Positions 35,751 through 58,745 of a stretch of DNA of 59,036 nt are shown here, one piece after another. Source of the DNA: a virus. Its lineage: Duplodnaviria > Caudoviricetes. Positions within the stretch are counted from its first letter, which is position 1, and each line of letters opens with the position of its first letter. The position numbers and the translations under genes were made by a program. The stretch lies in the IMG/VR virus record IMGVR_UViG_3300032258_000001, positions 1 to 59,036 of that record; one strand, given 5' to 3'. The notes beneath the pieces are model-generated. The model had not been told where the DNA came from and ran no database searches. It saw nothing but the letters and a program-made list of their open reading frames with translations.

Positions 35751-36725
35751 CTAGAGTGCCAGTCCGGTGCGCCAGTTGATGGGGCTGCCGGCGAACTCGA
35801 CGCAGGCGACTGCGGCGACGTTGGCAACCGTGGCACCAACACACTCGTAAGCGTAGAAGCTCATGATGAAGTCTTCGTGCTTGGTGGACATGCAGATGTT
35901 GTCCAGTACGAAGAAGTCACCGAGATACTTCGGCGCTGCGAACATGTACATTTCGTAGTCCGCGACGAGGTTGTTCTTGATGGTGATGTTCCACTTCAGA
36001 CCCATGATCTGACGCTCGGTGAAACCGTTGACGAACATGTCTTCGGCCAAGTCACCACCGATCGCGGTGCGGTCCAGAGCAACAACGTCCCAGATGGTGA
36101 TGTTGTTGATGAGCGCTGCGGCCGGGTTCAGACGACGGTTCGTGGTGGGGAGACCACGCATCGCGTTGGCGAGGTTGGGGCGATCAATCGCACCACCTTC
36201 GATGTACTGACACGCGCCAAGGGCTGTGTTGACAGTGTTCTGACCACCGGAGTCGGTCTTGACGATGGTGTCAACCACGCTCATGAACTTCCGGTCTTCC
36301 TCTTCAAGGATGTCCTTGAGGATGAAGTCGTTGAAGATCTGGCGGATGTCCATGTCGTACGTGAGCAACTCGTTGACGTCGGAGACGTAACGACGGCTCA
36401 TGATACGGTCGAACATGACGCGGTACCGGGGTGCGGTCAGGTTGCTGTCCATGGGGGAAGTTCCGAACGGCACGGTGTAGGCGCCAGCGGAATTCGGTTC
36501 CATGTCCTTTACGATGACGGGCAAGGGAGTGTCCACCTGCTTGTCGAGGTCAGCGGGAGTGACGTCGGCAACGTCGTAGAACTTACGAGCGAAACCTTCT
36601 TCACGCTGTCTCAAGCGCAGGTAGTTGTTGACCTTGTCCTCAGCCTGTTTGCGGATGCCGCTGTCTTGGGAGGTGAGTCCGTTGACGACGGATTCGTTCA
36701 TCATTTTGACTTCAGTCGGATTCAT
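35751..36725 (-). CDS. major capsid protein (probable HK97 fold)
   Basis: 324 aa; protease-scaffold-decoration-capsid gene order, strong codon bias, followed by a terminator. Confidence 0.75.
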   Translation of the reverse strand: MNPTEVKMMNESVVNGLTSQDSGIRKQAEDKVNNYLRLRQREEGFARKFYDVADVTPADLDKQVDTPLPVIVKDMEPNSAGAYTVPFGTSPMDSNLTAPRYRVMFDRIMSRRYVSDVNELLTYDMDIRQIFNDFILKDILEEEDRKFMSVVDTIVKTDSGGQNTVNTALGACQYIEGGAIDRPNLANAMRGLPTTNRRLNPAAALINNITIWDVVALDRTAIGGDLAEDMFVNGFTERQIMGLKWNITIKNNLVADYEMYMFAAPKYLGDFFVLDNICMSTKHEDFIMSFYAYECVGATVANVAAVACVEFAGSPINWRTGLAL

Positions 36726-36736
36726 GATGATTCTCC

Positions 36737-37252
36737 TTAAGAGTCAGCGCCGGCCGGAATGTACTCAGTCCAGAAACGGAGCACGCTCTTGCCGTCTTTG
36801 TTAGTTTCTACGCCCGTGGATACGACGCCGACCGCGGTCAGCGCGCCATAGGGCAGCACTCCGAGCAACGTGATGGAACCGTCTGCGCTCTGCAACAGAT
36901 CGTTGGGAGCGTAGGTTTCGCCATCGTCGTACTCGGTTGACTCGACTTCGAAGGCACCGCTGCCGACGAGACCGGACATCACTCCACCGGAGATGTTGCC
37001 CTTGTCGGAGTTGGTGTCAAAGTCGTCTTGACTGTTGATCACGAAGATCGGCATCGGTTTGTTGCCGACCGCGCCCACCGGACAGCCCTTGACGAGTTCG
37101 CCATTGGAGTCCAGGGAGCAGCACATGCCTTCGACGATCGCTTCATCGGCCTTGGGAGCCGCGGCGAAGTCGAGACGACGTGGAGCGATGGCCCCTTTTA
37201 CGGGGACCAACGTGTGGTCATACATTTGACCAGGAGTAAGGGTACCAGCCAT
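36737..37252 (-). CDS. putative capsid decoration/cement protein
   Basis: 171 aa just upstream of the capsid gene; 'FEVESTEYD...YAPNDLL...VGVVS' beta-tulip-like. Confidence 0.55.
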   Translation of the reverse strand: MAGTLTPGQMYDHTLVPVKGAIAPRRLDFAAAPKADEAIVEGMCCSLDSNGELVKGCPVGAVGNKPMPIFVINSQDDFDTNSDKGNISGGVMSGLVGSGAFEVESTEYDDGETYAPNDLLQSADGSITLLGVLPYGALTAVGVVSTGVETNKDGKSVLRFWTEYIPAGADS

Positions 37253-37275: not shown

Positions 37276-37665
37276 CTATGCTCCGTTGCCGAAGCCTTCT
37301 TCCCATGCTTTGTCCGAAGGGGCGAGATCTTTCTTGCTGGCTTTCGCCGCGCTTTTCTTGATCTTCGCGGTGTGTCCCAGTGAGTTCGTCGGGGCGCTTT
37401 CGCGTTCGGTGAACTTACTGACGACACGCTGCAGACTCAGCAACGCTTGATCCGGATCTTCCCGGAACGACTGCACTAGGTCATCCGAGGCCTCTTTCGA
37501 GAGCACATCGGACTCAACCAGCTTTTCAGCGGTCTGTGCAAGGACTTGGTCGCTGAAAGCGGGTTTCGCGTTGGCTTCCGAGGCCTCCTTCTGGAGCTCC
37601 GCGATAGCTTCCTGCGAAGCCTCAACGTAGTCGATGACCGTGTTGATGAATTCCCGCTGTTTCAT
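37276..37665 (-). CDS. head scaffold-associated hypothetical protein
   Basis: 129 aa, helical; LQKEA, LSKEA, IKKSA motifs. Confidence 0.55.
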   Translation of the reverse strand: MKQREFINTVIDYVEASQEAIAELQKEASEANAKPAFSDQVLAQTAEKLVESDVLSKEASDDLVQSFREDPDQALLSLQRVVSKFTERESAPTNSLGHTAKIKKSAAKASKKDLAPSDKAWEEGFGNGA

Positions 37666-37676: not shown

Positions 37677-38744
37677 CTACTTCGCGCTTTGAATTGCTTG
37701 AAGAGCTGTCAGAAGAGTGCTCTTCCGGTCGGGAGTCTCTTCCTTCTCGGAGGCTTCCTTCGGCATTTCCTCGGGAATTTCCTCTTCGACGGGAGCCTCT
37801 CCTACGGGAGCCTCTTCGCCCATGCCGCCTGCTTCCTCTTGAAGGACCTGGATGATCTCTTCGTCGGATGCACCGGTCTCGGCCTTGATGGCTTCAACCT
37901 GGGCCTGAGCTTCCATCAACTCTTCGGGAGTGATGCCTGCGGCATCTAGTTCAGCTGCTAGTTGTTCCAGAGCGGCCGCGTCTTCTTCTGGAATGGCGGC
38001 TTCCGGCTGGGCCTCCTCGGGGAGGACTGCCTCCGGGGTCTGGACAGCAGTGGCGTCGAGAAGCGCAGCGGCCTGATCTTCATCAGGAACAATGCCGCTT
38101 TCCACGACGTCGTTTATGTCCTCAGCCTTCTTTTGCAGGCCTCTTTCGAAACCGGCACTGTAGGCCAGAAAACTGTTGAGCACATCCTCATCGACTTCCA
38201 GGTCGTCCTCTTCCGAGGCTTCCTTCTCGATGGGCTCTTGTGCGGTTGCTTCGTCCTCAAACTGGGCGAGGGCGATGGTTTGAAGGATGGACTCGGCCAA
38301 ACGCTCGGCACGGGCAACCTTGGCGATTTCGCTCGGGGCGGCATGCGCGGTGGTAACGTCCGTTACGTTTACGTTGTCGCCTTCCATCACGACGGATTCG
38401 TCGGCGTTGAGTTCCTTGGGAGAGTTCGGGTTGTCCTGCGGGTGCACGACTTCGTCCTCTTCCTTGTTCTGGGCCGCGTCTTCGGTAGCCAATTGGGCAT
38501 TGCCCTTGACCGCGCCGATTTCGCTGTCCTTCAGGTCTGCTTCCATTTCGGCACCGCGGTCTTTCTCGGCGGCCAACGTATTGTCGGCGTCAACCTCGGT
38601 AACCTCGTGGCCAGTCTTCTTCTCTTTGATCTTCTCGGACCCTGCACCTTGCGGATTAGTAGAGTCGGCGGCTTCTTTCTGAAGGTCGATCTGAGAGAAG
38701 AACTCGTCGCAGAGCGATCCAACCAAGTCTTTGTTGTTCGACAT
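37677..38744 (-). CDS. putative prohead scaffold protein
   Basis: 355 aa, very acidic and E/A-rich, between protease and capsid genes; five KxA motifs. Confidence 0.6.
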   Translation of the reverse strand: MSNNKDLVGSLCDEFFSQIDLQKEAADSTNPQGAGSEKIKEKKTGHEVTEVDADNTLAAEKDRGAEMEADLKDSEIGAVKGNAQLATEDAAQNKEEDEVVHPQDNPNSPKELNADESVVMEGDNVNVTDVTTAHAAPSEIAKVARAERLAESILQTIALAQFEDEATAQEPIEKEASEEDDLEVDEDVLNSFLAYSAGFERGLQKKAEDINDVVESGIVPDEDQAAALLDATAVQTPEAVLPEEAQPEAAIPEEDAAALEQLAAELDAAGITPEELMEAQAQVEAIKAETGASDEEIIQVLQEEAGGMGEEAPVGEAPVEEEIPEEMPKEASEKEETPDRKSTLLTALQAIQSAK

Positions 38745-38786: not shown

Positions 38787-38820
38787 ATTATACTGTAGCA
38801 CACATTTGTGCCACAGACAA
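38787..38820 (-). promoter_or_regulatory. candidate promoter upstream of the scaffold/capsid genes
   Basis: Minus strand ttgtctGTGGCACaaatgtgtgctacagTATAATtagg: perfect TATAAT, but the GTGG element is spaced 15 nt; an alternative reading is TTGTCT-N17-TACAGT. Confidence 0.45.
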
Positions 38821-40230
38821 ACGCTGTTCGGTATCGGTCAATCCGTCAGCGAAGGACAGCAGGTAGTTGGCGTACTCGGTGGCCAGTAGTTCGGCCCTCT
38901 CGCTTACCTCACCCGCCTTCTTCTCGATGACAGTCTTGCCGCCTACAGGAGTGCCGTTAACGACAGCCCTGATTACCCGAACCCGCACAGGTTCAGCGTG
39001 AATGGAACACTCAGGCATCATTGCCTCGGCGTCCCGCATCATGGCCCCATCGCAGCATCCGGATTCCTCGTAGCTTCCGTCACCGAGCACCTCACCAACG
39101 TTGGAGCTTTCAAGGACGCGTCCCAGAACACCCGGGATGCTGGCCTTGACGTCGTCCATGTCTGGTTCGATGTCGGCGAATTTGTCGCCCATGATCATGC
39201 GGAAGAAAAGATCCGCAGGAAGAACGACCTTGAAGCGCTTGAGTGCACCAAGCACCGCGTGTGGGTCCTCGCCGGACAAGCGCCCAACGATGTCATCGTC
39301 CACTTCACCGAATCCGCTACCGTGGCAGAAGCCTTCGATACCTTCTTCGGGGTCGGTGGACATCAAAATCTCTTTCTCTATCTTGGCGAGCTTCTGCAAC
39401 AGGTTGTACCTGCGCGCCGCGCTACTGCCGTAGGGGAATATCTCGGCGGGTGGGGCCAGGCTGTACATCTCGGCGAGCTCCGCCCCGGTGATTACCTGAC
39501 TGGCTACCTTGCGTAGGCCGAAGCAAATCTTCTCCGCCGGGCGTCCCACTCCACTAATATCGTGGAAGAATGGCCTCGGCGTGAGGGCGCAGACCTGGGT
39601 GCCATCACTGGCGATCTGCATGGCATGCTTCTTCAGATGGACGCAGTAGTCGGAAAGCTTGCGGGCCTCATTATGGCAGTATGAGCAAATGTCCTCTGGG
39701 CAGTCGCTGCCCATGCTGAAGTAAATGGGTTCGCCACTGGCGACCTTTTGCAGCTCGTTGCGCCACTTGCTCTCGTCTACCCCAACGATGAGTTCTCCCC
39801 GGTCCATATTACTGTTGTACGCCGCTTTGACTATATAACCACTGGGGGTTCCGTCTTTATGCTTGTTGACATGATCCTTATACACCTTTCCATTCTTCAT
39901 GAACGTCTTGTCGTGGTACTCCGTAAGCCCACCCGTCAAATCGATGGTCTTCCTGGAGGGGTCTTTCGGATGCGGACAGGTATGGGTGGCATTCTTGCGG
40001 ATGAACGCATCGCCGTTATTGTTCGGGCCGTAGCGATCCCAGGCACCCACACTGATGAGGTGGATGTATTGATGGCCGGGCTTGCGCTCGAAACTATCCA
40101 GGTCGTTGTCGAACATAGCGGCTCGTTTGTGTAGCCACTGGTCATCTACGCCACGGCTATGCAGCGGCACTAGACTTGCCGTCGGCATGCCAAAGTCGAA
40201 CGCATCTGGAAATATCAGTTTCTGTATCAT
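38788..40230 (-). CDS. prohead (maturation) protease
   Basis: 'NNNGDAF', 'VYKDHVN', 'FSMGSDCPEDICSYC', 'FHDISGVGRPAE' fit the His/Ser/Asp pattern of HK97/assemblin-type head proteases with a Cys insert; start ATG 40230 overlaps the upstream stop. Confidence 0.75.
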   Translation of the reverse strand: MIQKLIFPDAFDFGMPTASLVPLHSRGVDDQWLHKRAAMFDNDLDSFERKPGHQYIHLISVGAWDRYGPNNNGDAFIRKNATHTCPHPKDPSRKTIDLTGGLTEYHDKTFMKNGKVYKDHVNKHKDGTPSGYIVKAAYNSNMDRGELIVGVDESKWRNELQKVASGEPIYFSMGSDCPEDICSYCHNEARKLSDYCVHLKKHAMQIASDGTQVCALTPRPFFHDISGVGRPAEKICFGLRKVASQVITGAELAEMYSLAPPAEIFPYGSSAARRYNLLQKLAKIEKEILMSTDPEEGIEGFCHGSGFGEVDDDIVGRLSGEDPHAVLGALKRFKVVLPADLFFRMIMGDKFADIEPDMDDVKASIPGVLGRVLESSNVGEVLGDGSYEESGCCDGAMMRDAEAMMPECSIHAEPVRVRVIRAVVNGTPVGGKTVIEKKAGEVSERAELLATEYANYLLSFADGLTDTEQRLSVAQMCATV

Positions 40231-41765
40231 GGTGCCCACTCCGGTGGTACGCCGGTTGCGTTTTCTTCCAGGTAGAGCTCTGCCCGGCGTTGCGAAAGGT
40301 TCTCTTCATGGCGGCGTTGTGCGTCACGGTCTCTGGCCGCATCACGCGCTTCTCTCATTTGAGCCTCTTCCTGTTTTGCAGCCATCTCACGCTCCTTGAG
40401 CTTATTGGCCGCTTTGGTGGCTGAATCATCCTTTGCCGGTTTCTTCTCAGGCGCACTACTGCCGCCGGGAATCTCCATTCCAGGAAGAACGCCGCCTTCA
40501 CCTGCCTCCAACTGCTTGGTGGCTTCGTCAATGTCGGCTATGCGTCCCTTCTTGATCTCCTTGCCAATGTCCTGCAGCTGCTTGATTGTTGCAGGATCAT
40601 AGACGTTACCTTGAACAAGCTGCTCACGGACCAAGGACTTGAGCCAGGCCGTGTACTTCTCGTCAAGCAGCTCCGGCATGGCTCCGACGATATTGTTGAA
40701 AGCTTCGATGGAGTCATCGATGGGATAATCCTTGATAAAATCATCCGAAGCTATATCGGTGAAAGCCTGCGTGGCCCTCAACTCGAGAAGCCTGTTTCGC
40801 AATTCGGCGTTGAAGGCCTCTTCATCCACCTTCTTGTGCCCTTGGGCAAGATGGCTGCCTATCGGAAGCGTCATGAACTTCTTGATAGGATCGGAAATAA
40901 GTGTGTCGGATACATGCTTGGTGGCTTTACCTAGCCCGCTCACTCCCTTTACTGTCCCTCCCGCTAGGGTAGGAAGGACAGCTGCCGACTTTTTTAGCAA
41001 TGCACCTGCCCTGGCATGCTCCCGTGCCTCGTCCATCGCAATTGCGATGCTGGTGAATGGTTCACGCAACGGGAAAAGAGCTGCATTGGCGGTCTTCTCC
41101 AATGGAAGCTCCTTGTCGATATAAGCTCCGATAAGCTTCATGAGGCGGACACCGTCATCACCATACTTGTTAACGGTAATATGGGCCACCTTGTTGAGCG
41201 CCTTGTCCTGCATCTTGCGCATAACCTGGCAGGCTCTATGGATAGCGTCTTCACTGGCCTGCTTGCGTATGCCGACATTCTCGCGAAGCTTCTCCATCTT
41301 GCGCTCCAGCCGGATAGTCGTTCTATACAACTCACGCTCGAGGACTCCTGGGGCTTCCGGCGCTTCAGGTGCTTCCGATGCATCCCAAGCTACCTTCTCC
41401 AAAGTTCTCCGTAATTCCGGAATGTTCTGCTGAGGTGTCGGTGCTGGGAAGAGCAGATCGGCACCGGCCACTTTCTTATGATAGCCATACATCTCGCTCG
41501 CAACCGCTGCCGGATCGACAAGCTCGAAGTCCTCCGCACGGTCCTCGGACGCGCGCTTCTGGAGAGTGTATACCGACTTCGACTTGTTGTATGCCTCGCA
41601 GGCCCTGGTCGCTAGGGCTGGGGTCATGCCGTCGATGCCGGACAGAACGTCGGCGGCGATCTTGTTGAGATCCTCACCGGGGCTATGCTTGCTGCGGTCG
41701 ATTATCTGCTCAATCGCCGACACGACAGCTTGCTCTTTGCTCTTATCCAGTTTGTCGAACTTCAT
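40227..41765 (-). CDS. putative internal head protein
   Basis: 512 aa, helical, about eight KxA motifs. Confidence 0.55.
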   Translation of the reverse strand: MKFDKLDKSKEQAVVSAIEQIIDRSKHSPGEDLNKIAADVLSGIDGMTPALATRACEAYNKSKSVYTLQKRASEDRAEDFELVDPAAVASEMYGYHKKVAGADLLFPAPTPQQNIPELRRTLEKVAWDASEAPEAPEAPGVLERELYRTTIRLERKMEKLRENVGIRKQASEDAIHRACQVMRKMQDKALNKVAHITVNKYGDDGVRLMKLIGAYIDKELPLEKTANAALFPLREPFTSIAIAMDEAREHARAGALLKKSAAVLPTLAGGTVKGVSGLGKATKHVSDTLISDPIKKFMTLPIGSHLAQGHKKVDEEAFNAELRNRLLELRATQAFTDIASDDFIKDYPIDDSIEAFNNIVGAMPELLDEKYTAWLKSLVREQLVQGNVYDPATIKQLQDIGKEIKKGRIADIDEATKQLEAGEGGVLPGMEIPGGSSAPEKKPAKDDSATKAANKLKEREMAAKQEEAQMREARDAARDRDAQRRHEENLSQRRAELYLEENATGVPPEWAP

Positions 41766-42592
41766 TTCTTGGGTTCCTCGTCTTCGAATTTCCGACTCGT
41801 AATCTGTTCTGCTTCCTGTATCAAATCTGATCTGGGCGGCTCAATGGCATGCCCAATAGCCTCACTGACGCCTGCCGCGTCTGCCGAATTGTCTGCCTGG
41901 CCTTCGGCATCCGCCTTGTCCCACGTCGATGTGACGGAGATGGCAGAAGTGCCGGCCCCATCAATTAACTTAGCATAAGTATGGCTTGATTTCAAAACTG
42001 TCTTGACGTGTTCGCTCACTCCCATCTGCCTGACCCAGTTCCTAAGCTCCGGGACTAGAGCGCATCCATCTATGGCATACTGCGTGAGATATTTGGTTCC
42101 GCCGTGATACGCAACCACCTTCCACATGTACGCCGAGTCGAACTTTATATTGTCCGATATATACTTGTTGGGGACGAAAAGATTACGCTGCACCCAAAAA
42201 GGCCTGTTGACACATTCCTGGACATCATAGAACAGATGAGAATACATATGGATAGTCTCCACCGTGACCAATGGATTGACCTGGGCGACGAAAAAGTCAT
42301 GTGGGGCATTCGGGTCGAGCAACGCCGCCTCCATAGTGTCCCGCATACCACCAGCCGATACATCCTCGTACAGCCTGAGAGCCAGAGTGGCCGCCTTGGT
42401 AGTCTCATACGCCATCAGAGCATCCGGGTCAACCCTATACCTGCCGCTCCTCATCCTCACTACACGCTTAAGAAGGACTATATAAGGGTCTTTGGACGGC
42501 CTGTAGATGGGCAGGCCGGCTTCTTCACGCTCAATCTCCTTGAGCGCGATGCCGTACCGCCAATCAGGGGTGTATGTCAGTGGATCAAGCAA
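41762..42592 (-). CDS. hypothetical protein
   Basis: 276 aa coupled ORF in the head operon. Confidence 0.6.
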   Translation of the reverse strand: MLDPLTYTPDWRYGIALKEIEREEAGLPIYRPSKDPYIVLLKRVVRMRSGRYRVDPDALMAYETTKAATLALRLYEDVSAGGMRDTMEAALLDPNAPHDFFVAQVNPLVTVETIHMYSHLFYDVQECVNRPFWVQRNLFVPNKYISDNIKFDSAYMWKVVAYHGGTKYLTQYAIDGCALVPELRNWVRQMGVSEHVKTVLKSSHTYAKLIDGAGTSAISVTSTWDKADAEGQADNSADAAGVSEAIGHAIEPPRSDLIQEAEQITSRKFEDEEPKK

Positions 42593-48292: not shown

Positions 48293-51200
48293 TATTACAA
48301 TAGGCGTGTCGATGTCTATCTCACCCTTATTGAAGGCTTCCTGAGCCTCTTTCACTGTTCTGAACGTCTTCTTGGGTTTCTCCTTCTTGGCTCTGGTAGC
48401 TAGATAGAGGCCCTGCACAAACTCCTGACTGGGAGTATAATTGGCCCTGAAGCTCCGTGCGCTAAGAAGGTTGCTTTTCGGCATCATCTTCTCTCTCGCC
48501 TCTTCGACCGCATTCTTACTGACAGGAACATAATAAGTGACAGTGTCACCATCAAAATCCATGCCATACGGACCGACAATAGAGGGGCTAACCTGCACGG
48601 TATCGCCCTTGACCAGCACCGGGTCGAATGCCATGACGCTGTACTTATGCAAGCTGGGGGCACGGTTCACTATGACGGGACGCTGCTTGACGGCATCCTG
48701 TAGAAACTTCTGCGCACGATCATCACGATCCTTGACCATTTTTATGGCTGCTGTGGGCCCGTAACCATGTCGTACCATAGCGCGTACCACAAAAGGCTCG
48801 TAGACATCCCATGCCTGCTTGATCGGAATGCCCATCTGGTTGAGCTTCAGCGCAGGATTGGGGGTAACGACGCCACGACCAGCTACATCCATGGACGTGC
48901 CCAGTATACGGCGATGGTATGCTCCCCGCTTAGCGCTACCCTTACCAAATACCCACTTGAGCAGCCCTTGGACGTTCTTCTCTTCCAGCTTAGCATCGTC
49001 CGGGTCGTATAGGCCAGTAAGGGCTTTGTATGACTTATAGATATTGCCGCGCGCACCCTTGAGCATCTCGTCTGGGAGCCTATCCTTGGCGCTGCGCAGG
49101 TCGTCCCTGGCGAATACCAGGCTACGATACATCATATTGGCGTCCGCACTGACATTGACACCTTCGAGCTGGGTGACCGGGCGGAACTTGGGGGGCAGCA
49201 CTGGGATACGCTCCATCATGAAGTCCTTGGGGTGCACTCCCTGCTCCTCCATGCTCTTCAACGCTCTATAACGCTTGAGGGCCTTGTCCTTCTTGCTTGG
49301 CTTACTATGCTTCAGCTCCTGCAGTGCACTCTTGACCTCGTTTTTAAGATCCAGCTTCCCGAGGGCCGCCTTTATGGCATTACCACCGCTCAGACCATTG
49401 AGCTCTTCCTCACCGTTCATAATGGCGTTGAATCTCTTCTGGGTCATGTTGAGTATATTGCTCATCGACCGCTCCATCACCGGGTTGGGCATAGGCTCGT
49501 CAAGCTGGATGTATGCCCAGTCGTCACCGTTGTGGCCAAACAGTTTGGGGTCGAACAAGCCGCCGTCGATCGGCTTCATGGTCTTCTGGTCGAACGTCCT
49601 GGCTATCTGCAGCTCATGGCCCTTGCTCAGCTTCCTGGCCTGGTCGTTGGTCATACCGAAAAAGTTGACGCGGTCACTGTTCTCATCGACATTGATTCCT
49701 GCTGCCTGCAGGTGCTTGTAAAACTTCTCATGGACAAGGCTCTTGCCAGGCACCTTTGGCATACGCCCCAGTCGGAAGTCACGCCAAAACTCGTCATTAG
49801 ACTGCCCTCTTACCAGCTTGGCGTCCTTGAGAACCTGCATGGCGCCATGGCTTACCACGGCGGACGTGTGTAGCCCGCCCATCTGCTTGGCTCCAGCAGG
49901 TCCACCACGAAGCGGCGTTTCTTCCGCCGTAACGCCGCCGACGCCGCGCGCGCCTATCTTGTCCTCGGCTACATGCATCATACGATGGAAGAATGCGTCG
50001 CCAGTCAGCACTTCAGGTATCTTGCGGCCGGTCTGTGGGTCGTATAGATCTTCGTTCGGAGAAATTCCGGAATCCCGTAACTTCTGCTCGTAATACTTGA
50101 TGAGGTCCTTGTCCTCGAAGCCTTCCACAGCCTCCGGCTTGCCTGTGTGCCTAGCCAGCTTGCCGGCCATTACTTCGACCACCTGCATGGGGTTGACACG
50201 GCCTATGATACCAAGGCTGTTGGCCACGACGTCCAAAGGATTGCCGTCCTTATCCAGCGGCATCTCGCTATCAGGTAGCACATTCACTACGCCTTTGGCT
50301 GCATACCTGTTGGAGTTACCCGACCATACTGTCTTCCCATTACGCCTAGTGTAGAGGATGTGGTTACGTTCCAGCTCTGGGCAATAAACGTTACCTACGT
50401 AATCAACCCACTCGTCGGTCTGGGCCGATTGCTTCTTAACGTGGCTATGATTGATTGTAGGCTGGTTCTTCTGCCGGTATGTAGATACTATATAAGATGG
50501 CCTTATCGTCTGTACGGTCTTGCCGTTTATGACGACCGGGTGTTTAGGTATAGCTTTGCGCTTGATTGTTGCTGACATGCCGAGGTGTAAGCATACCCTC
50601 TGCCAGTCTCCCGCTAGACGGTATGACGTGGTATGGATACCATGCCCAGACTGAGTCCTGTACCCATCACCGAACATAAACCACTCGTAGAACACCGCAA
50701 TGCGCTCAGGAGGCAGTTCCAGGATATTCTCTGGTATATACTTCTCGTATGACTTGCCAAACTGTCGTAGGTATGTGGCCCAGTGCTTCGAGTATACCCT
50801 CACCTTATCGCCCGTCGTGGACCACTTAAGTCCAGCCGCATCAAATGCATCCCGGACTATCTGAGGGTTGTCCCCTTTGGCAACGCATATATCGAATGCG
50901 TAGTCAGATGTCTTATCCTGCCATACTATATTACCATCAGACAGGAAAAGACCCATAACCATTAAATAGGTGTCAATCGCTACTTCTGGCCCTTCCACCA
51001 ATGTCGGGTGGCAGTCGTTCTTTCCATGGGGCAATGTCTTATAGACATCGGGAAGCTTAAATGTATTAGCGTCTTGGCCTAGCCAGGTGCCGGTCTTCAG
51101 AAGCCTATACCGGCTCATCCCGTGTAACCTAGAGGACGGTATGAGTTCATAAGAGTCTTTGTGCCTTAGCTTGGCATAATGCTTATGGTCCGCTGTCGTG

Positions 51201-53704
51201 CAGAAGTTCACCTGGGTTGTATTGACCATATGCATACGCCCTTCGTGGGCATATTCATGCAGGTAACTCACTTCAACGTACTCGATCTCGTGTGTATCGG
51301 GATTAAGGGAAGCCACCTTGTCCCCGGACATAAGATCGGATACGACGCACCAACCACGCTCGGTCAGGACTTCGGTCTCTTCGTCATAGCACATCTTGTC
51401 CCCGTTCTTCATCGGGATATTGGCGCGGACGTAGACCGTGGCATGCTTATCACCGACATCCACATCGACGACCTTTCCTTCATACTTGTGCTCCCAGGTC
51501 TGCGTGAGGGCGGTCTTCGTCTTGCGGCCCATGCTGCCTGGTTTAGGGTCGTTCTGCCGTACGGCGACGATGAGGGGATCTCCCTCCCTGACGACCGTTC
51601 CTCGCTTGACGATACCTTTCTCGCCGATAGTGCCCATCTGCTCCTTGGTGAACTTTCCGGAGAACTTACCCATGAACGCCTTCTTGTCGAAGTCGGTATT
51701 GCTGGACACCGGTATGCGGCTCTTGTACATCTTCTCGGCAGCCATCTTCTTCGCAGCGCTCGCACTTATGATGATGGCATCCTCGAAGTTCATGCCCTTC
51801 CAAGGCATGTAGGCTACACGCAGATTCCTACCCTGGGCCGCGACACCCTCATCGTCAGTGTAGTTAGTCGTGCTGAGTACCTGGCCCGGTTTGATCTCGT
51901 CACCGACCTTTACCTGCGGAATACTGCGCATATAACCCTTCTGGTTGAAGGGATGGTTGTCGTAAAGCTCATATACCTGGGTGCCTTTGACCCCACGAAC
52001 GACGATCTTGTCGGCGTCTATGCTGGCCACCCTGCCCCCATCGGAGGCTTTGTTGACGCCGAACATTTCGCCAAGCTTGGCTTCTACCGTGGTGTCCCGG
52101 TGCTTCGCCCGGAACAATGGGGCCTCCCGGTGTGCCAGCGGCATGCTCTGTCCGCCGTACTTACCACCCATATGCAGCCTGTTCGCCATGATGCCGTTCT
52201 TTCCTGGTACGGCGTTCGCCCCAAAGCTGTACATGTTCGACTCATCCGGAATGTAGAAGTTCACTTCCTTCTTGGGCACGATACCGATGCCTCTGCTTCC
52301 ACGGAAGGCCGGTACGAACTTGCCGTTGGATTGCATCTCTTTCTTGGTAGCGACTTTGCTGCGGGCCGCCGTCAGACTGTCCACCCACCGCTCTTCGCCC
52401 GTACGCGCGTCTATCATCCTGGTGTAGAGTCTACCATCGTCACCCTTGCGGACGCCCTGGTTAAGATACATATCCAATCCGACACGGGTACTTTCGACTG
52501 ATCGTACCGGATCGATGAAGCCCGCGAAGCTGTCTTGTACGGCGCGGGTTTCCGAAGGTGCCGTACGTCCACTGGCTATGCCACCTTCACCGATTCGGGT
52601 AATCTTGGTGGATAGGTCGATGGCGGAGAATGGGCTGCTGCCATCTATATAGCCCGCATGCTTGGACTCGTTAAATATTGCGTCCACGTGCTTATTGAGC
52701 GGAGCTGGGGGAATATCCTTGAAATCGCCGCTGCGACTGATCCGCCACAGTAAGTTTCTGGCAAGCCCTCCGCCGTCCCTGATGATCCTCTCCGCGAAAT
52801 AGTCCGCCGGGCCGTCTATCTTCTGGAACTCAAGGCCATCGCGATAGTCGGCTTCCTCTTCGCCCTTGCTCAGCCTTATGATCTTGGCACTGGACTCGAG
52901 CAGCGTCTCGGGGGTGATCTTCTTATGGGCGCGCCCAAGCGTCATCTCCGTCGCCACGGGGTCCAGTTCGGACTTCTGCAGCTGCTCGAGCAGCTCGTCA
53001 TAGTGGCTCGCGTAATCGGCGGCTACCTTGGAGACTCCGCCTTGAAATCTGTGTACCGGATTCGGGACGTCACTGGCCTGCCTGTTGACATCCAACAGCT
53101 CCTTGCCCCAACTCTTCTTGATCTGGTCGTCCGTCACTCCTGCCCGTTTAAGAAGAGGATACAGTTTGTAGCCTCTGGTGCCCTTGCGCACGCGCATGAT
53201 ACCCGTCTTGGGGTCCAGCTCTATCTTGAACTGACCACCAGTCCCCTGCTTTGGATTGACATGGGCCTCCACAAGCCCGTTATCCTTCTTGCGGGAGTAT
53301 ACACCCGGAGTCAGGCGGAACATATAGTTGATGGCCTTCTCGCTTCCGTTGCGAATAAACGTGCCCCTGCGGGTCATGTAGGGTACGTTCATGAGTATCC
53401 GAGGCTGGCTCTTCTTGACCTCCCCGGTCTCCTTGTTCGTCAGCACCCAGCGTCCACGAAGCTTCTTAGTGATATTGGCGTTCTTGAGCGTGGCGTTCTT
53501 TTCATCTCGGAGTGTAGGCTCCTTATCATCGTAAGTGAGCTCGTCGACACTGAGGACATAGCGCTCGTTCTCCACCGGAAACCGCTGAAGAAGCGCGGCC
53601 TTGGTGTTGTTGAACAAGCGCTCACGAACGGCCCTATAATCCGTGGGATCGTAAGGCTCTGACTTGACCGGGTCAAGCAGTCTTGTCTGGAAGGCTTCAG
53701 GCAT
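48278..53704 (-). CDS. rpoBC: phage RNA polymerase beta / beta'-N fusion protein, intein-containing
   Basis: Beta motifs 'GFIDPVRSVESTRVGL', 'ANRLHMG', 'GRNLRVAYMPWKGMNFEDAI', 'GDKM|SNRYAAKGVV', 'HVAEDKIGARG'; beta' motifs 'KPIDGGLFDPKLFG', 'PVLPPKFRP', 'NRAPSLH', catalytic 'GMDFDGD'. Confidence 0.95.
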   Translation of the reverse strand: MPEAFQTRLLDPVKSEPYDPTDYRAVRERLFNNTKAALLQRFPVENERYVLSVDELTYDDKEPTLRDEKNATLKNANITKKLRGRWVLTNKETGEVKKSQPRILMNVPYMTRRGTFIRNGSEKAINYMFRLTPGVYSRKKDNGLVEAHVNPKQGTGGQFKIELDPKTGIMRVRKGTRGYKLYPLLKRAGVTDDQIKKSWGKELLDVNRQASDVPNPVHRFQGGVSKVAADYASHYDELLEQLQKSELDPVATEMTLGRAHKKITPETLLESSAKIIRLSKGEEEADYRDGLEFQKIDGPADYFAERIIRDGGGLARNLLWRISRSGDFKDIPPAPLNKHVDAIFNESKHAGYIDGSSPFSAIDLSTKITRIGEGGIASGRTAPSETRAVQDSFAGFIDPVRSVESTRVGLDMYLNQGVRKGDDGRLYTRMIDARTGEERWVDSLTAARSKVATKKEMQSNGKFVPAFRGSRGIGIVPKKEVNFYIPDESNMYSFGANAVPGKNGIMANRLHMGGKYGGQSMPLAHREAPLFRAKHRDTTVEAKLGEMFGVNKASDGGRVASIDADKIVVRGVKGTQVYELYDNHPFNQKGYMRSIPQVKVGDEIKPGQVLSTTNYTDDEGVAAQGRNLRVAYMPWKGMNFEDAIIISASAAKKMAAEKMYKSRIPVSSNTDFDKKAFMGKFSGKFTKEQMGTIGEKGIVKRGTVVREGDPLIVAVRQNDPKPGSMGRKTKTALTQTWEHKYEGKVVDVDVGDKHATVYVRANIPMKNGDKMCYDEETEVLTERGWCVVSDLMSGDKVASLNPDTHEIEYVEVSYLHEYAHEGRMHMVNTTQVNFCTTADHKHYAKLRHKDSYELIPSSRLHGMSRYRLLKTGTWLGQDANTFKLPDVYKTLPHGKNDCHPTLVEGPEVAIDTYLMVMGLFLSDGNIVWQDKTSDYAFDICVAKGDNPQIVRDAFDAAGLKWSTTGDKVRVYSKHWATYLRQFGKSYEKYIPENILELPPERIAVFYEWFMFGDGYRTQSGHGIHTTSYRLAGDWQRVCLHLGMSATIKRKAIPKHPVVINGKTVQTIRPSYIVSTYRQKNQPTINHSHVKKQSAQTDEWVDYVGNVYCPELERNHILYTRRNGKTVWSGNSNRYAAKGVVNVLPDSEMPLDKDGNPLDVVANSLGIIGRVNPMQVVEVMAGKLARHTGKPEAVEGFEDKDLIKYYEQKLRDSGISPNEDLYDPQTGRKIPEVLTGDAFFHRMMHVAEDKIGARGVGGVTAEETPLRGGPAGAKQMGGLHTSAVVSHGAMQVLKDAKLVRGQSNDEFWRDFRLGRMPKVPGKSLVHEKFYKHLQAAGINVDENSDRVNFFGMTNDQARKLSKGHELQIARTFDQKTMKPIDGGLFDPKLFGHNGDDWAYIQLDEPMPNPVMERSMSNILNMTQKRFNAIMNGEEELNGLSGGNAIKAALGKLDLKNEVKSALQELKHSKPSKKDKALKRYRALKSMEEQGVHPKDFMMERIPVLPPKFRPVTQLEGVNVSADANMMYRSLVFARDDLRSAKDRLPDEMLKGARGNIYKSYKALTGLYDPDDAKLEEKNVQGLLKWVFGKGSAKRGAYHRRILGTSMDVAGRGVVTPNPALKLNQMGIPIKQAWDVYEPFVVRAMVRHGYGPTAAIKMVKDRDDRAQKFLQDAVKQRPVIVNRAPSLHKYSVMAFDPVLVKGDTVQVSPSIVGPYGMDFDGDTVTYYVPVSKNAVEEAREKMMPKSNLLSARSFRANYTPSQEFVQGLYLATRAKKEKPKKTFRTVKEAQEAFNKGEIDIDTPIVIVENK
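50315..51391 (-). mobile_element. intein with LAGLIDADG homing endonuclease (359 aa)
   Basis: Starts CYDEETEVLT (block A), 'TADHKHY' (block B), 'MGLFLSDG' and 'WFMFGDG' (LAGLIDADG), ends 'VYCPELERNHILYTRRNGKTVWSGN' before Ser+1; removal restores GDKM-SNRYAAKG. Confidence 0.93.
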
Positions 53705-54772: not shown

Positions 54773-55094
54773 GGGACATATCCTCCGGTTCGATATATTT
54801 ATGATGTAAAAGCCTCAAAAATACCTTCCAGGTCTCGAGCCTGGGTATCCACTCCGACTTCTCCTCGGAGATCTGGGCCCAACCAAGGGCCACTTCGTTG
54901 AGAAGCTCGGCGTATCTGTCCCGATCCTTCTCTTCGTCCATGGTGAAGATGTAGACCTTGACCTCCGCCCTGCGCCTGGGACGCATGGACGCCGGGTCAT
55001 CGTTCTTCAGATTCAGAGGGGGGCCGGTATAGGGCAAGCCCTCATACATACCATCGATGTGTTCCCCGCTGGGTCTCTTGGCGCCTTTCTTCAT
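54759..55094 (-). CDS. hypothetical protein
   Basis: 111 aa coupled ORF. Confidence 0.6.
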   Translation of the reverse strand: MKKGAKRPSGEHIDGMYEGLPYTGPPLNLKNDDPASMRPRRRAEVKVYIFTMDEEKDRDRYAELLNEVALGWAQISEEKSEWIPRLETWKVFLRLLHHKYIEPEDMSRATT

Positions 55095-55414
55095 ACGAAC
55101 ATATCTCTCTTTCTGCCAACTGGAGCCTTCTTTGATTGATCGCGCAGCTTGCGTTTCAGTGCATCCATCTTGCGTTGCTGTAGTCCAAGCTCTTCCCGGA
55201 CCTTGACGTCCATAACTCTGTCCTGGATAGACTTGATGTCGCTATCTGCTGGTGAGGTCATCTTGGAGCCGACGACACCGGAAACCAGCCCGGCAGCAGC
55301 TGGAACTGCGATCATAAGCCCAAGCAACGAAAAAGCGTTCTCGCTGAGTTCCGCCCCGGCTCTGAGGGCACTCCCGCCTGCTTCCTTGTTCAAATATTCA
55401 GTGCACCTGTCCAT
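55091..55414 (-). CDS. small membrane-segment protein
   Basis: 107 aa; LNKEA followed by 'LLGLMIAVPAAAGLVSGVVG'. Confidence 0.6.
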   Translation of the reverse strand: MDRCTEYLNKEAGGSALRAGAELSENAFSLLGLMIAVPAAAGLVSGVVGSKMTSPADSDIKSIQDRVMDVKVREELGLQQRKMDALKRKLRDQSKKAPVGRKRDMFV

Positions 55415-55424
55415 GTTGTATCTC

Positions 55425-56210
55425 CTACGTTATAAGTCCACTTGTTCTCAAAGCATTTGCAATCCCGCCGGCCATACTGGCGGCCCGCGTTATGGGCGCT
55501 GGTAGTGAGAAGATCTTCCCCAAAGCATACCCCGCCACTGCACCTCCTGCATATCCAAGGCCTGCCCTGATGGCTCCAGCAGTAATGTCGGCCATACTGG
55601 CATTACCCTTCTGATCAGGCGTCTTGTTGAAAATGGTGCCTATGGCCGCCTTCTGGCTGCTATTCAGATACGGGTCGTTGGCAACGATCTCCTTTGCATG
55701 GTCCAGCGGAATGATGTCCTGCTGCATGATGGCTGGATTGGCATACAAGTCCGCTTCCTTCTTCAAGGAGCCTTCCTTGTTCATATAATTCCAGTCGGTC
55801 ATGCTCTTCCACGGGTACTTGGGGTCGAAATGGGTGGCTACGCTCAGGCCGCCGCCAAGAAGCGCTGCCACGATCGCCATACGCTTGCGCATGCGCTTTA
55901 TTTCTTCCTCTTCTTCTATAGGCTCAATTGGTTTTACACCAGGCATCTTGTTGCGGACGGCCAACAAGCCTTTGGCAAGCCAAGGAGCCGTAAGGTATGC
56001 GCCGCCGGCAGCAAGCCCGGCAGCAGCCAAAGCGCTGCCTATGGGTGCTCCCGTGACATTCTTCCAGCCACGATAGGCCTTGGCAGGCTCGAACGAGGAC
56101 AGCCAGTTGGGTTTGAAAGCCTCCCCGGGCTGTACCGGTCCCTTACTCTTGTCTCGGCCCGTCATCCTCTCGAGTAAACTGGCTCTGTTCTGTGATACTG
56201 GTGGCATCAT
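55425..56210 (-). CDS. glycine-zipper hydrophobic protein (putative virion/ejection protein)
   Basis: 261 aa; 'GSALAAAGLAAGGAYL', 'AGLGYAGGAVAGYALG'; LKKEA. Confidence 0.55.
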   Translation of the reverse strand: MMPPVSQNRASLLERMTGRDKSKGPVQPGEAFKPNWLSSFEPAKAYRGWKNVTGAPIGSALAAAGLAAGGAYLTAPWLAKGLLAVRNKMPGVKPIEPIEEEEEIKRMRKRMAIVAALLGGGLSVATHFDPKYPWKSMTDWNYMNKEGSLKKEADLYANPAIMQQDIIPLDHAKEIVANDPYLNSSQKAAIGTIFNKTPDQKGNASMADITAGAIRAGLGYAGGAVAGYALGKIFSLPAPITRAASMAGGIANALRTSGLIT

Positions 56211-57076
56211 TCACCTCTCATGAAGCTCATAAACTTGTTGGAAAACGCCGGCTTTGGTGGCTTCTTGTAGAAATTCCTGTTGTACGCCCATGCGTTCGGG
56301 TCTCTGGCGGGGACCGTGGAAACTTCCTTCTTATCGTCGTCATCCATAAGATTGGCCAGTCCCAGTACGGCGCCCGTTCCGAGAGCGGCCGCTCCGATCC
56401 ACTTGCCGTGGGTGCCCATGAAGCCCTTTACCTTGTCCCAGATCATCTTATTCCTCTCGGTTCTATAAGTGTCCGGCATGCTGGACAGACTGGATAGGTA
56501 CTTCTTCCTGTACTCATCTCCGAAACGGGCACGAGCCTTGGAGAAAGCCAATGGGTTTGGCTTTTTAGCCGCCATACGGTTAAGCTGGCTATCGTTGGGG
56601 TCCTTAGGGTTGAAAGGGGTACCTAGGTATATAGCTGATGCCAGCCGGGCCGTGGGATTGTGCATCTCTTGTGGTAGCTCCCACCGGGCGTACTCAGACT
56701 TAGCCCCCACAGGATCGCTTACGAACCTGGAGAAGCTCTGCATGCTCTGAGCCATAGGCATTCCGCCCTTCGTGAGTATTCCTGTAAAGTACTTGCGCCC
56801 CGCTTGCTCCCCAGCCGCAGAAATAAGCTTGGCATGTTCCGGCTTGATCGGCTTTATGAGCATGCCTCCTGACAAATAACCCATCTGCTTAGCCTTCTCC
56901 AGCATAGCCTGCGTAGATACGCGCTTGGCCTCTATGGCACGTTGGCGTCCCTCAGCCGCCCTCTGACGGTTGAGGTTGAAGCGCTTCAAAACAGCCTGTG
57001 CGGGATCTTCACCCTCGGCCGTCTTGCGCAGTAATGCTGTAGTTAAATAGGTCACCTGCCTACCTCTCAAGTACAT
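56207..57076 (-). CDS. basic protein with C-terminal hydrophobic segment
   Basis: 289 aa (start uncertain); LRKTA; 'WIGAAALGTGAVLGLA'. Confidence 0.55.
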   Translation of the reverse strand: MYLRGRQVTYLTTALLRKTAEGEDPAQAVLKRFNLNRQRAAEGRQRAIEAKRVSTQAMLEKAKQMGYLSGGMLIKPIKPEHAKLISAAGEQAGRKYFTGILTKGGMPMAQSMQSFSRFVSDPVGAKSEYARWELPQEMHNPTARLASAIYLGTPFNPKDPNDSQLNRMAAKKPNPLAFSKARARFGDEYRKKYLSSLSSMPDTYRTERNKMIWDKVKGFMGTHGKWIGAAALGTGAVLGLANLMDDDDKKEVSTVPARDPNAWAYNRNFYKKPPKPAFSNKFMSFMRGE

Positions 57077-58745
57077 TCGGGAAAAGGTTGTCGTCTCCGA
57101 GTGTCTTCAGCTTCTTCTCGAGGTCCTGCAACGCTTTCAGCTTGGCTCTTGGCTGCCTGTTGCCAATGGAACTACCTCCAGTAGGTTGGTATGCCTCCCA
57201 CGGTTCGGCCTTACTGACAGCCCTTCTCCAGTTTTTATAGTAAATGTCCTTATCACCGAGCAGTTCTGGCTTGTACTTAGAGGACACATGCTGGAATGGC
57301 AGCCACGCCTCCTTGGCCTTTTTCAACTGGTCAAACGCAGCGGACCTCTCCGTCCGCATATCCTCCAGCTTCTTCTCGAACGATTCTCTGTAGGGGGCTC
57401 TGGCCACAGACTGTATCTGGAACAATGAGTCTATGTCTCTTCTCATGTTTTTATAGGTGTCTTCTATACCAGGGGAGGCCTTTTCCAAGGCTTCCAACTT
57501 ACGCCGTGCAGCAGTTATCGAGGCCTCTGGGAACGTTCCGGGCGCCTTCTTGTTGCGCTCTTCCATGACCGCCAAAGCCCTCCTTGCGGGTCCGACGACT
57601 TTGCTGAAATTATCGTAGCGACTCTTCGCCGCTTTATACTTATTCAGGATCTCGGCTCCTTTGGGCCCTTGTAGGAGGTTCCACCTGGCACCTGGATCAG
57701 CCATCGCCTCGGCTGTGGCCTCATCGCCGAAGTGGGTCTGCAACGCGGTCATCAAATTCGCATCTTTGAGACCCCAGTGCCTCAGGGCCACGGGATCGAC
57801 ACCTCCTTTGCTGCCTACACCCGCTACACGTTCGTCAATCTCCGGCAACGGCATCTTGTCCGCCCCCGGGAACGGTGGTACAGAAGTCTCACCAGGAAGC
57901 CGGGGCTGGAAGGCCTCACGGGCTGCAATGACCCGAGGATTCTCGATGCCATAAGGCAGTGAGTCTGCGTCAAGCACGGCTTCTACAGTAGGCGGCTTGC
58001 CAGTGTAGGGCATAGTCTTCACCTGAGCTCCGCCACTGGCATCAGGAGTCTCGCCGGCGTCAGTGAACTCGTCCTCAACGCTCACATCTTCTCCAGCTCC
58101 TTCCTTGAGCTTGGTCTGCACGTGCTTTGCCCGCTCTTCAGGAGTCATAGCCTTCTGAACGCTGCTATTGAGAGACTCATGCATCTCAGTCTGCTTGGAG
58201 GGGTCGGCACCTGAGTTGTTCACGGTCTTGGTGACCATGTTGTCATAGTTCTTTCCGAAGAAGCCAAACTTACGGGCCATGAACAGAAGAGCACCACCTA
58301 GGATAGCGCCCACTACGGCACCCCGCTTACCGCCAAGAAGCGCACCTGCCAGTCCACCTAACAGTACCCCCGCCAGGCCGGACGCCGACGAATATCTGTC
58401 CATCGGAGCCTTTTGGGCAGCCACATGTTGATAGAGAACGGCGTTATACCCAAGCCCGCCATCGGAGAACAGTTTTGTGGCGTACTCCTGGGCGAACGCT
58501 TCCTGCAGTTTGTCGCCTTCCAGATCTGGATGCGCCTGTGAGTACTTTGCCAGGGCGGGGCCGACCACTTCCTGGCTCAAAGCCTTGTTGTAATCCGCCA
58601 TGGCCTTCTTGGCTGCCGCTGCATATCGAGGCTCCTCAACGAAGGTATCCTTGGCCTTACGCTTTATGTCTTCCATAATGTCGGCCGTCTTCTCAATCAG
58701 TTCCGCACCTTCACGGGCCGCTATAATGTCTGCCTTGGTAAGCAT
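57060..58745 (-). CDS. glycine-zipper protein (putative virion/ejection protein)
   Basis: 561 aa; IEKTA; 'GLAGVLLGGLAGALLGGKRGAVVGAILGGALLF'. Confidence 0.6.
   Translation of the reverse strand: MLTKADIIAAREGAELIEKTADIMEDIKRKAKDTFVEEPRYAAAAKKAMADYNKALSQEVVGPALAKYSQAHPDLEGDKLQEAFAQEYATKLFSDGGLGYNAVLYQHVAAQKAPMDRYSSASGLAGVLLGGLAGALLGGKRGAVVGAILGGALLFMARKFGFFGKNYDNMVTKTVNNSGADPSKQTEMHESLNSSVQKAMTPEERAKHVQTKLKEGAGEDVSVEDEFTDAGETPDASGGAQVKTMPYTGKPPTVEAVLDADSLPYGIENPRVIAAREAFQPRLPGETSVPPFPGADKMPLPEIDERVAGVGSKGGVDPVALRHWGLKDANLMTALQTHFGDEATAEAMADPGARWNLLQGPKGAEILNKYKAAKSRYDNFSKVVGPARRALAVMEERNKKAPGTFPEASITAARRKLEALEKASPGIEDTYKNMRRDIDSLFQIQSVARAPYRESFEKKLEDMRTERSAAFDQLKKAKEAWLPFQHVSSKYKPELLGDKDIYYKNWRRAVSKAEPWEAYQPTGGSSIGNRQPRAKLKALQDLEKKLKTLGDDNLFPNVLER

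Follow-up and report, generated by a model that had tools for sequence, protein, structure and literature searches.

The question raised by virus record IMGVR_UViG_3300032258_000001 (IMG/VR; Caudoviricetes) is why one pentapeptide, a hydrophobic residue followed by any residue, Lys, any residue and Ala, recurs through the proteins of its head module. The window analysed here is the whole 59,036-base stretch, which is a complete contig. Every long open reading frame (ORF) lies on the minus strand, as do all the features described below. Tail, baseplate and fibre-type genes occupy 71-35732 (33 tail-side ORFs) and the head module 35751-58984 (19 ORFs). Besides the capsid gene and small ORFs, the head module encodes an acidic scaffold-like protein, a 480-amino-acid (aa) candidate for the prohead (capsid maturation) protease and several large unknown proteins; a split multisubunit RNA polymerase (RNAP) is encoded there as well. 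The sequence-only reading of this locus had proposed that the pentapeptide is cut by the protease, which would have a Lys-x-Ala specificity, and that it predicts the internal virion proteome. We find that the motif is a short, isolated element occurring far beyond chance. Judged from the sequences, it is probably the recognition and cleavage motif of a prohead protease of new specificity, encoded at 38788..40230.

The motif was counted as [LIVMF]xKxA, with the mean of 500 within-protein shuffles of each ORF as the expectation. On the head side 51 sites are found where 14.4 are expected (Poisson P = 6.5e-14), and on the tail side 11 where 11.6 are expected. The head enrichment described in the sequence-only reading is thus retained after correction for composition; every pentapeptide it listed is present in the protein named, with coordinates checked by translation, and further sites exist. 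Six head ORFs together hold 36 sites against 4.7 expected (P = 4e-20). The observed count was reached by none of the 500 shuffles in the ORFs at 37276-37665, 37677-38744, 38788-40239, 40227-41765 and 42585-44774. Enrichment is weak in the remaining 13 head-side ORFs (15 sites against 9.75, P = 0.07), and the 610-aa RNAP beta′ piece, a 276-aa ORF and a 171-aa ORF have no site at all. Placement within the proteins is also unequal: a site starts within residues 2-36 in 11 of the 19 head-side ORFs and in 1 of the 33 tail-side ORFs, with 1.3 sites expected per group. The 20 residues flanking 34 of the sites show 6.4% pairwise identity, compared with 6.5 ± 0.3% for random windows from the same proteins. 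An origin of the sites as repeat units is ruled out by these unrelated flanks.

The closest cultured relatives are Salmonella phage Arash and Vibrio phages D69, D181 and D148, with a capsid identity of only ~25%. The head genes of the window run in the order protease, acidic 355-aa ORF, 129-aa ORF, 171-aa ORF, capsid protein, and the same order is found in Arash and in the IMG/VR loci. Arash gp218, gp220, gp222, gp223 and gp225 carry 4, 9, 6, 8 and 6 sites respectively, with 0.5-1.0 expected for each, and gp221 carries 2 (0.34 expected). The first 50 kb of the Arash genome, a region with the terminase gene, another structural block and numerous non-structural genes, is at expectation (9 sites against 7.6 for gp1-17 and 8 against 10.9 for the mostly non-structural remainder). 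A profile made from 40 of 58 protease homologues located 465 relatives in IMG/VR. The best 80 of these 465 loci were kept and reduced to 55 non-redundant ones (<30% of 6-mers in common); the head/tail split was run on 50 of the 55, the five without a BLAST-detectable capsid ORF being excluded. ORFs of at least 80 aa were taken from the gene strand of each locus by a greedy longest-ORF rule, so that starts are sometimes extended upstream. The head side of the 50 loci holds 1517 sites against 379 expected (4.0-fold) and the tail side 120 against 83 (1.4-fold), and 48 of the 50 are individually significant at P < 1e-3. The N-terminal placement recurs: of 615 head-side ORFs, 273 carry a site that begins within the first 36 residues, where 37.8 sites are expected. 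The motif occurs in Salmonella and Vibrio phages and in varied metagenomes, and is conserved down to ~27% protease identity.

An unbiased search of 1027 ORFs, covering every single-residue triplet in eight spacing patterns, gave L.K.A as the top gapped triplet (729 against 163 expected), followed by F.K.A and M.K.A, with I.K.A also high. K.AS (594 against 126) and EK.A (651 against 142) lead their own gap classes, and K.AA is high too. Seven triplets of the (0,2,4) pattern outrank the SSS homopolymer; the sole Glu-ending one among them, K.A.E, is the same motif extended. The requirement for Lys and Ala is strict. Observed-to-expected ratios on the head side are 1.02 for the reversed motif, 1.03 when Lys is changed to Arg, 1.09 for Ala to Gly, 1.21 for Ala to Ser and 0.91 for Lys to Glu ([LIVMF].E.A). 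Because the reversed motif and the near variants are at expectation, composition or helical periodicity was rejected as the cause of the enrichment. The motif logo reads [L/M/F/I]-[E/Q/V]-K-[Q/T/E]-A-[S/A/E]-[D/E/A]. The residue after Ala is enriched for Ser (2.8-fold), Glu (2.1-fold) and Ala (1.9-fold), and Pro is rare there (0.19-fold); between Lys and Ala the residues Gly, Pro and Asp occur at 0.23-0.27-fold. In orthologue alignments of the protease and of a 729-aa head protein, sites shift between adjacent columns. In one locus (L028), whose protease is 31% identical, K-x-A-S is found 17 times against 1.6 expected and the full motif 9 times against 7.0, the hydrophobic position having been lost. 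The core of the motif therefore appears to be K-x-A followed by Ser or Ala, and the L028 sequences suggest that the requirement at the hydrophobic position (P5, for a cut after Ala) has been relaxed in this lineage.

The candidate protease gene (38788..40230) encodes 480 aa from its ATG, or 483 aa from an upstream GTG at 40239. The 483-aa ORF (38788-40239) has 8 motif sites against 0.71 expected (500 shuffles), among them LHKRA, LQKVA, LRKVA, IEKKA, IRKNA, IVKAA, LKKHA and LQKLA. Its N-terminal domain (residues ~38-235) is of catalytic type and is joined through a disordered linker to a C-terminal domain of ~240 residues, which is helical. In the AlphaFold2 (AF2) model the mean predicted local distance difference test (pLDDT) score is 81.7, with residues 232-268 below 50. 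Searching the BFVD database with this model (Foldseek) returned annotated prohead proteases at E values of 1e-5 to 1e-3 and phage G gp19 at 2.4e-8; the fold neighbours in BFVD include prohead protease, COG3740 and DUF2213 annotations. By fold, the catalytic domain falls within the herpesvirus-protease-type prohead class (MEROPS S21, S77, S78, S80). Its feature neighbours in the ESM Atlas are Peptidase_S77, S80, S78 and DUF2213 at a score of 0.92, which we treat as a lead only. The gene sits within the head module, beside the scaffold-like and capsid genes. We class the 480-aa protein as prohead-protease-like from its modelled fold and gene position; by sequence it belongs to no described family.

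We found 58 homologues of the protease, and in the 40 that were aligned H106, H120, S172, D224 and S226 are invariant. The contexts VYKxHxN (H120) and YFSMG (S172), 52 residues apart, resemble FFNHK and GMSVGF in HK97 gp4, whose positions 65 and 114 (49 apart) we take to be the catalytic His and Ser. By analogy with HK97 gp4, H120 and S172 may be assigned as a putative catalytic pair. An insert in the protease domain, of the form Cys-x2-Cys … Cys-x-His (residues 182-198), comes shortly after the putative nucleophile Ser. Three of the four residues of this cluster (C182/C185/C196/H198) are invariant in the 40 homologues, and C182 is present in at least 90%. The cluster looks like a small zinc-binding knuckle; we know of no comparable Cys/His knuckle in the HK97 or T4 proteases.

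The conserved sites of the protease flank its catalytic domain. LHKRA (40120..40134) precedes the domain and is kept at this column in 37 of the 40 homologues; it is a predicted autocleavage site, and a cut here would remove ~37-40 residues. LRKVA followed by Ser (39502..39516) comes after the last conserved catalytic block in 39 of the 40. This second site falls inside the segment of low pLDDT (residues 232-268), and autocleavage at it is predicted to separate the protease domain from the C-terminal helical domain. A further site at K280 is kept in 32 of the 40 homologues, and drifting sites are found near residues 431-442.

The major capsid protein (35751-36725) was identified by a match to PHROG 2522 (E 1.1e-5) and by similarity to Arash gp226. 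IRKQA occupies its residues 24-28 (36642..36656, with the translation checked) and is the predicted maturation site, at which a cut would remove a 28-residue N-terminal propeptide. The strict motif is present at the same aligned position in 36 of 51 capsid ORFs located by BLAST in non-redundant loci; most of the remaining ORFs retain K-x-A at this position but have some other kind of residue in place of the hydrophobic one. In Arash gp226 the site is LVKEA, at residue 25. Beyond residue 50 the capsid protein of the relatives is mildly depleted in the motif (9 sites against 16.1, P = 0.04).

The acidic 355-aa protein (37677..38744) has sites at residues 21, 140, 172, 203 and 327 (5 against 0.67 expected). 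Family searches with this ORF gave no match, and its putative scaffold role is proposed from position and composition. ORFs at the scaffold position in 52 non-redundant relatives contain 186 sites against 44.3 expected and have no BLAST similarity to the window protein. In loci such as L035, L042, L047 and L059 the scaffold-position ORF has a single full motif. The 129-aa head-module protein (37276..37665) has sites at residues 24, 55 and 102 (3 against 0.38).

On the other side of the protease gene, the 512-aa protein (40227..41765) has 7 sites against 1.34 expected. All seven lie in residues 33-261 at a spacing of 24-54, and the C-terminal half is free of sites; this pattern predicts a long, multiply cut propeptide. 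Its orthologues in 10 non-redundant loci hold 72 sites against 11.7. The conserved 729-aa head-module protein (42585..44774) has 10 sites against 1.09, including MFKGA, LGKHA, VDKQA and FRKDA beyond those listed in the sequence-only reading. Across 29 aligned orthologues the sites cluster at positions 1-10, 140-290 and 480-580 and are almost absent from three folded blocks. The most conserved ones (positions 6, 140 and 576) are located in or beside segments of the AF2 model with pLDDT below 50 (1-9, 105-167 and 580-608). The fold of the 729-aa protein matches only one uncharacterised phage protein. The 260-aa protein (47450..48232) carries LLKQA at residue 6, ISKEA at 14 and MPKMA at 244 (3 against 0.45, shuffle fraction 0.012). 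Between its two leader sites and the C-terminal site it consists mostly of Pro/Met/Gly-rich repeats resembling GGAPPMDPAMM, and it matched no family in Pfam or PHROGs.

Several smaller head-side proteins carry the motif in a leader. The 274-aa protein (46614..47438) has a predicted leader of nine residues ending in LYKQA. Short cleaved leaders are likewise predicted from LNKEA at residue 8 of 55091-55414, LRKTA at residue 16 of 56207-57076 and IEKTA at residue 17 of 57060-58745; the one site of 55425-56210 is internal. The four ORFs within 55091..58745 have total counts at expectation and are unusual only in the N-terminal placement of the sites. The proteins at 46614-47438, 55091-55414 and 56207-57076 combine a motif-bearing leader with Gly-rich hydrophobic stretches that are membrane-spanning or membrane-active in look. 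Small leader-bearing proteins of this kind, with hydrophobic stretches, may be ejected proteins.

We propose that the protease, the scaffold-like proteins and the internal head proteins assemble together in the procapsid. The protease would then release its own catalytic domain through the conserved sites on both sides, strip the 28-residue N-terminal propeptide from the capsid protein and trim leaders of 9-40 residues off the internal proteins. Scaffold-like proteins and long propeptides would be cut to fragments of ~25-120 residues able to exit the shell. The proposed specificity requires P3 to be Lys and P1 to be Ala, and the cut would fall between Ala and the next Ser or Ala; further preferences would be L/M/F/I at P5, E/Q/V at P4, Q/T/E at P2, S/A/E at P1′ and D/E at P2′. 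The bond is assigned tentatively: neither Lys nor Ala is the stricter of the two, and a cut after Lys is a less favoured alternative. The Ala-Ser/Ala bond is preferred because it keeps a fixed residue at P1 and gives the P3-x-P1 layout of the T4, phiKZ and SPN3US motifs.

Several lines of evidence argue for cleavage. The motif is conserved throughout the clade in proteins that have otherwise diverged beyond the reach of BLAST. Its requirement for Lys and Ala is strict, and the neighbouring positions show subsite-like preferences with exclusion of Pro. Sites are found in N-terminal leaders and at a conserved position of the capsid protein, and they bracket the catalytic domain of the protease. 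RNAP beta′ and the capsid protein, both expected to stay intact, are mildly depleted. The same counting method also recovers the proven [LI]xE motif of T4 in gp22 (16 sites against 5.7) and gp21 (7 against 2.5), with 1 against 1.3 in the tail tube. From the motif, its requirements, its distribution and its conservation we infer that it is cut, that the enzyme is the protease of this locus and that the bond is the one given above. The Lys-x-Ala specificity suggested for the protein at 38788-40230 is, in consequence, the best-supported reading, with cleavage itself as the inferred step.

The second proposal of the sequence-only reading, that the motif predicts the internal virion proteome, stands in part. 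The motif does mark head-core proteins. The C-terminal part of RNAP beta′ (610 aa, 44771..46603; Pfam RNA_pol_Rpb1_5, E 1.1e-21), however, has no site where 1.05 are expected, and beyond residue 50 its 44 orthologues are mildly depleted (22 against 35.0, P = 0.013). The Arash orthologue is among the most abundant proteins of the virion preparation (PMC10585845). As this protein is abundant in the virion and yet free of sites, the motif appears to mark processed proteins and not all packaged ones.

A number of observations weigh against cleavage by this protease. Statistics pooled over loci include related sequences, which inflates the z-scores; the per-locus tests, the persistence of the motif in scaffold-position ORFs that BLAST does not relate and the drift of sites between alignment columns are independent of pooling. 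Every IMG/VR locus was chosen through this protease, which makes the pairing of the motif with this particular enzyme a presumed one. Several conserved sites are found in confident helices instead of loops. The site at K162 of the protease, kept in 35 of the 40 homologues, is within a confident helix (157-164) of the catalytic domain, and four sites of the 729-aa protein are in confidently folded helices. Helix sites of the K162 type may serve for late self-inactivation or may be kept for structural reasons. The assignment of the protease also meets several negative searches: Foldseek of the model against the PDB gave nothing at E <= 0.001, with antibody chains as the top rows, and the window protein has no Pfam match at E <= 0.01. 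None of the 40 homologues matches Pfam Peptidase_S77, S78, S80 or DUF2213 at E <= 1, and alignment of the 40-sequence profile with HK97 gp4 and T4 gp21 by hhalign gave a probability of 0.2. A phmmer search of PDB sequences with the protease gave no match either. Rhodococcus phage Finch encodes a protein weakly homologous to the protease domain but is not enriched in the motif (gp17, 1 site against 1.26), so the motif is not common to every relative of this fold.

The remaining points of this kind come from Arash. In the table of its virion proteomics paper, the motif-rich gp221, gp223 and gp224 are each covered over 100% of their sequence (PMC10585845), which is unexpected under complete cleavage and loss of the fragments. 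The words protease, cleavage and proteolysis do not occur in that paper. The preparation is described there as purified by sucrose gradient only, with 116 of 272 proteins detected (PMC10585845). With so many proteins detected after a sucrose gradient alone, the coverage table cannot decide the matter.

High coverage of the motif-rich Arash proteins is compatible with the absence of any cut, as would follow if the motif were a binding or targeting element. Such an element would be a short helical peptide that docks scaffold and internal proteins to the inner capsid, to the portal or to one another. Many sites do lie in predicted helices, the motif is concentrated in proteins expected to co-assemble in the procapsid, and N-terminal placement suits a targeting signal. 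A docking helix would not, however, be expected on both sides of a catalytic domain in 37-39 of 40 homologues, nor in disordered linkers. It would not exclude Pro and yet favour Ser, Ala and Glu after the Ala, and it would have no need for 5-11 copies per protein, some of them 5-8 residues apart. We therefore regard uncut docking as unlikely. Targeting and cleavage need not be mutually exclusive, since the targeting leaders of T4 internal proteins end in the cleavage motif.

If the motif is cut, the enzyme might still be another one, from host or phage, with the 480-aa protein merely a further substrate. The catalytic residues of that protein are assigned by analogy alone, it belongs to no known protease family by sequence, and all loci were selected for having it. 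A host enzyme is hard to reconcile with a motif kept across phages from very different sources. The 480-aa protein itself has the fold of prohead proteases, and its gene lies where a protease gene usually does, upstream of the scaffold-like and capsid genes. Its phage G homologue is motif-rich (7 sites against 0.73), as a self-processing enzyme would be, and T4 gp21 is likewise rich in its own motif. We consider a different enzyme to be quite improbable.

The strictness of the Lys, for which Arg is not accepted (1.03-fold), could also mean that its ε-amino group is used, the motif marking lysines for a covalent modification or cross-link in the head (an isopeptide bond, acylation or methylation) with no peptide bond cut. 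With a hydrophobic residue close to the Lys and a fixed residue two places further along, the motif is reminiscent of lysine-directed consensus sites. Modification would leave unexplained the equally strict Ala, the Ser or Ala after it and the occurrence of sites in leaders and at domain boundaries. Scans of the head-module ORFs with Pfam and PHROGs turned up no candidate transferase or ligase, and the sole enzyme that travels with the motif is a protein of protease fold. We give this explanation very little credence. That the enrichment is a functionless by-product of composition, helical periodicity or repeat ancestry is hardly believable. The enriched proteins do contain much Lys, Ala and helix, but the counts allow for composition and were tested by shuffling. 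Neither the reversed motif nor the near variants depart from expectation, the flanks are unrelated, and the motif survives where all other similarity is lost.

Cleavage by the prohead protease thus remains the reading that we favour for the window. We are more tentative about a wider statement: a large, nearly all-uncultured clade of virion-RNA-polymerase phages of ~160-230 kb may use a prohead protease of a new family, with the motif as a readable code. Equally tentatively, the specificity throughout the clade would be P3 Lys, P1 Ala and P1′ Ser, unlike that of the Glu-directed phage enzymes and nearer the Ala/Ser bond of herpesvirus assemblin. In IMG/VR the clade is represented by 465 relatives of the protease; Arash and the Vibrio D69 group are its cultured members. 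We found no report of such a motif in full-text literature searches or in the Arash and phage G papers, supplements and the 2020 phage G capsid paper aside. Were the wider statement correct, sequence alone would give the mature N-terminus of the capsid protein, the cleavable leaders of internal and ejected proteins, and the scaffold and protease self-destruct sites. The code would be readable for the whole clade and partly for phage G. Roles, mature ends or an identity as scaffold could then be predicted, in testable form, for dozens of proteins that are now hypothetical, in hundreds of phage genomes from metagenomes. Arash is in culture, and virion LC-MS/MS (liquid chromatography-tandem mass spectrometry) data exist for it (PMC10585845), which makes the prediction directly testable.

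Other features of the window deserve mention. The second RNAP gene (48278..53704) encodes a protein of 1808 aa in which beta is fused to the N-terminal part of beta′ (Pfam Rpb2_6, Rpb1_1 and Rpb1_2; PHROGs). This protein has 6 motif sites against 2.96 expected (shuffle fraction 0.082), which alone is not significant; two of them (184 and 224) are in the N-terminal ~330 residues, a region without a polymerase-family match. A segment of its beta part, at ~50321-51391 (residues ~772-1128), is probably an intein, judging from its borders and position. It starts with Cys directly after GDKM, ends in SGN followed by Ser and divides the Rpb2 domain-6 match in two; a weak LAGLIDADG_3 match (E 0.0013) is below the cutoff. 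Reductase and thymidylate-synthase matches in PHROGs at this place probably reflect shared intein sequence. Two longer homologues of the prohead protease, P0026 (696 aa) and P0058 (813 aa), are annotated in precomputed Pfam assignments with an intein domain and a homing-endonuclease domain (PF14890 with PF14623 or PF14528), and inteins therefore also occur in the protease gene of some relatives.

On the tail side, the 921-aa virion structural protein (30504-33269) ends in a glycosyl hydrolase family 88 domain (E 3.8e-63, residues 592-917), preceded by a region matching the virion protein PHROG 10356; it is probably a polysaccharide-degrading tail spike or fibre. The ORFs at 21901-23610 and 23621-25795 have strikingly similar N-termini, and those at 26120-26941 and 27151-29400 are alike over one short stretch a few residues in. 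These likenesses suggest that the paired ORFs encode fibre or receptor-binding proteins that share an attachment module and can be exchanged.

The nearest cultured homologue of the protease outside the Arash/Vibrio D69 group is Bacillus phage G gp19 (tblastn E 3e-4, Foldseek E 2.4e-8), termed a head maturation protease in a 2025 paper (PMC12484599). Some of the 7 motif sites of gp19 (L082:5650-6552; 0.73 expected) are near the start and at the end of the domain, and at the equivalent end of the domain it reads LEKVAS. At 300 aa, gp19 is shorter and has no helical C-terminal domain. Elsewhere in the head module of phage G the enrichment is only weak, with single sites near the N-termini of gp13, portal gp14 and gp20, and the N-terminus of its capsid protein has no K-x-A at the matching place.

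HK97 gp4 (Peptidase S78) and the DUF2213 proteases are alike to the window protease as fold neighbours, in the contexts and spacing of the His and Ser, and in having the gene directly upstream of the capsid module. The cleavage site is not alike. Maturation of the HK97 capsid protein cuts between K103 and S104, where the sequence (residues ~103-104) reads TFNK-SLG, unlike the window motif; HK97 gp4 and gp5 contain 0 and 1 motif copies, respectively. Herpesvirus protease and phage prohead proteases are said to have been placed in the same broad fold class by Cheng et al. in 2004. The maturation and release sites of herpesvirus assemblin are (V/L/I)-x-Ala followed by Ser, so that, if the cut here follows Ala, the two would have the same residues at P1 (Ala) and P1′ (Ser) and a P2 that varies. 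The herpesvirus sites have their hydrophobic residue at P3, where the window motif has Lys, with its hydrophobic residue two positions farther out. Herpesvirus scaffold proteins have one or two sites, compared with 5-11 here.

The systems of T4 (gp21), phiKZ (gp175) and SPN3US (gp245), whose enzymes are prohead serine proteases with the herpesvirus-protease fold, are alike in design: a short P3-x-P1 motif recurs in the scaffold or core proteins, in N-terminal propeptides and in the protease itself. The richness of T4 gp21 in its own motif is a precedent for a motif-rich protease. In SPN3US and phiKZ, propeptides with several sites are cut to small fragments and the protease cuts itself C-terminal to the catalytic domain, and SPN3US prefers Ser at P1′ (PMC5694885, PMC10052503). 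The T4, phiKZ and SPN3US enzymes all cut after Glu ([LI]xE, [SAG]xE and AxE). The window motif shares with T4 its concentration in scaffold or core proteins, propeptides and protease, and not in the tail, and it lacks the Glu at P1. Here no Glu is fixed; Lys and Ala are, with an added hydrophobic residue at P5. The window protease also differs from these enzymes in its Cys3-His cluster and its helical C-terminal domain of ~240 residues. Motif-directed head maturation is already known, and the characterised phage motifs end in Glu. Another specificity, unrelated to these, would mean that the strategy has persisted through at least one rewriting of the code.

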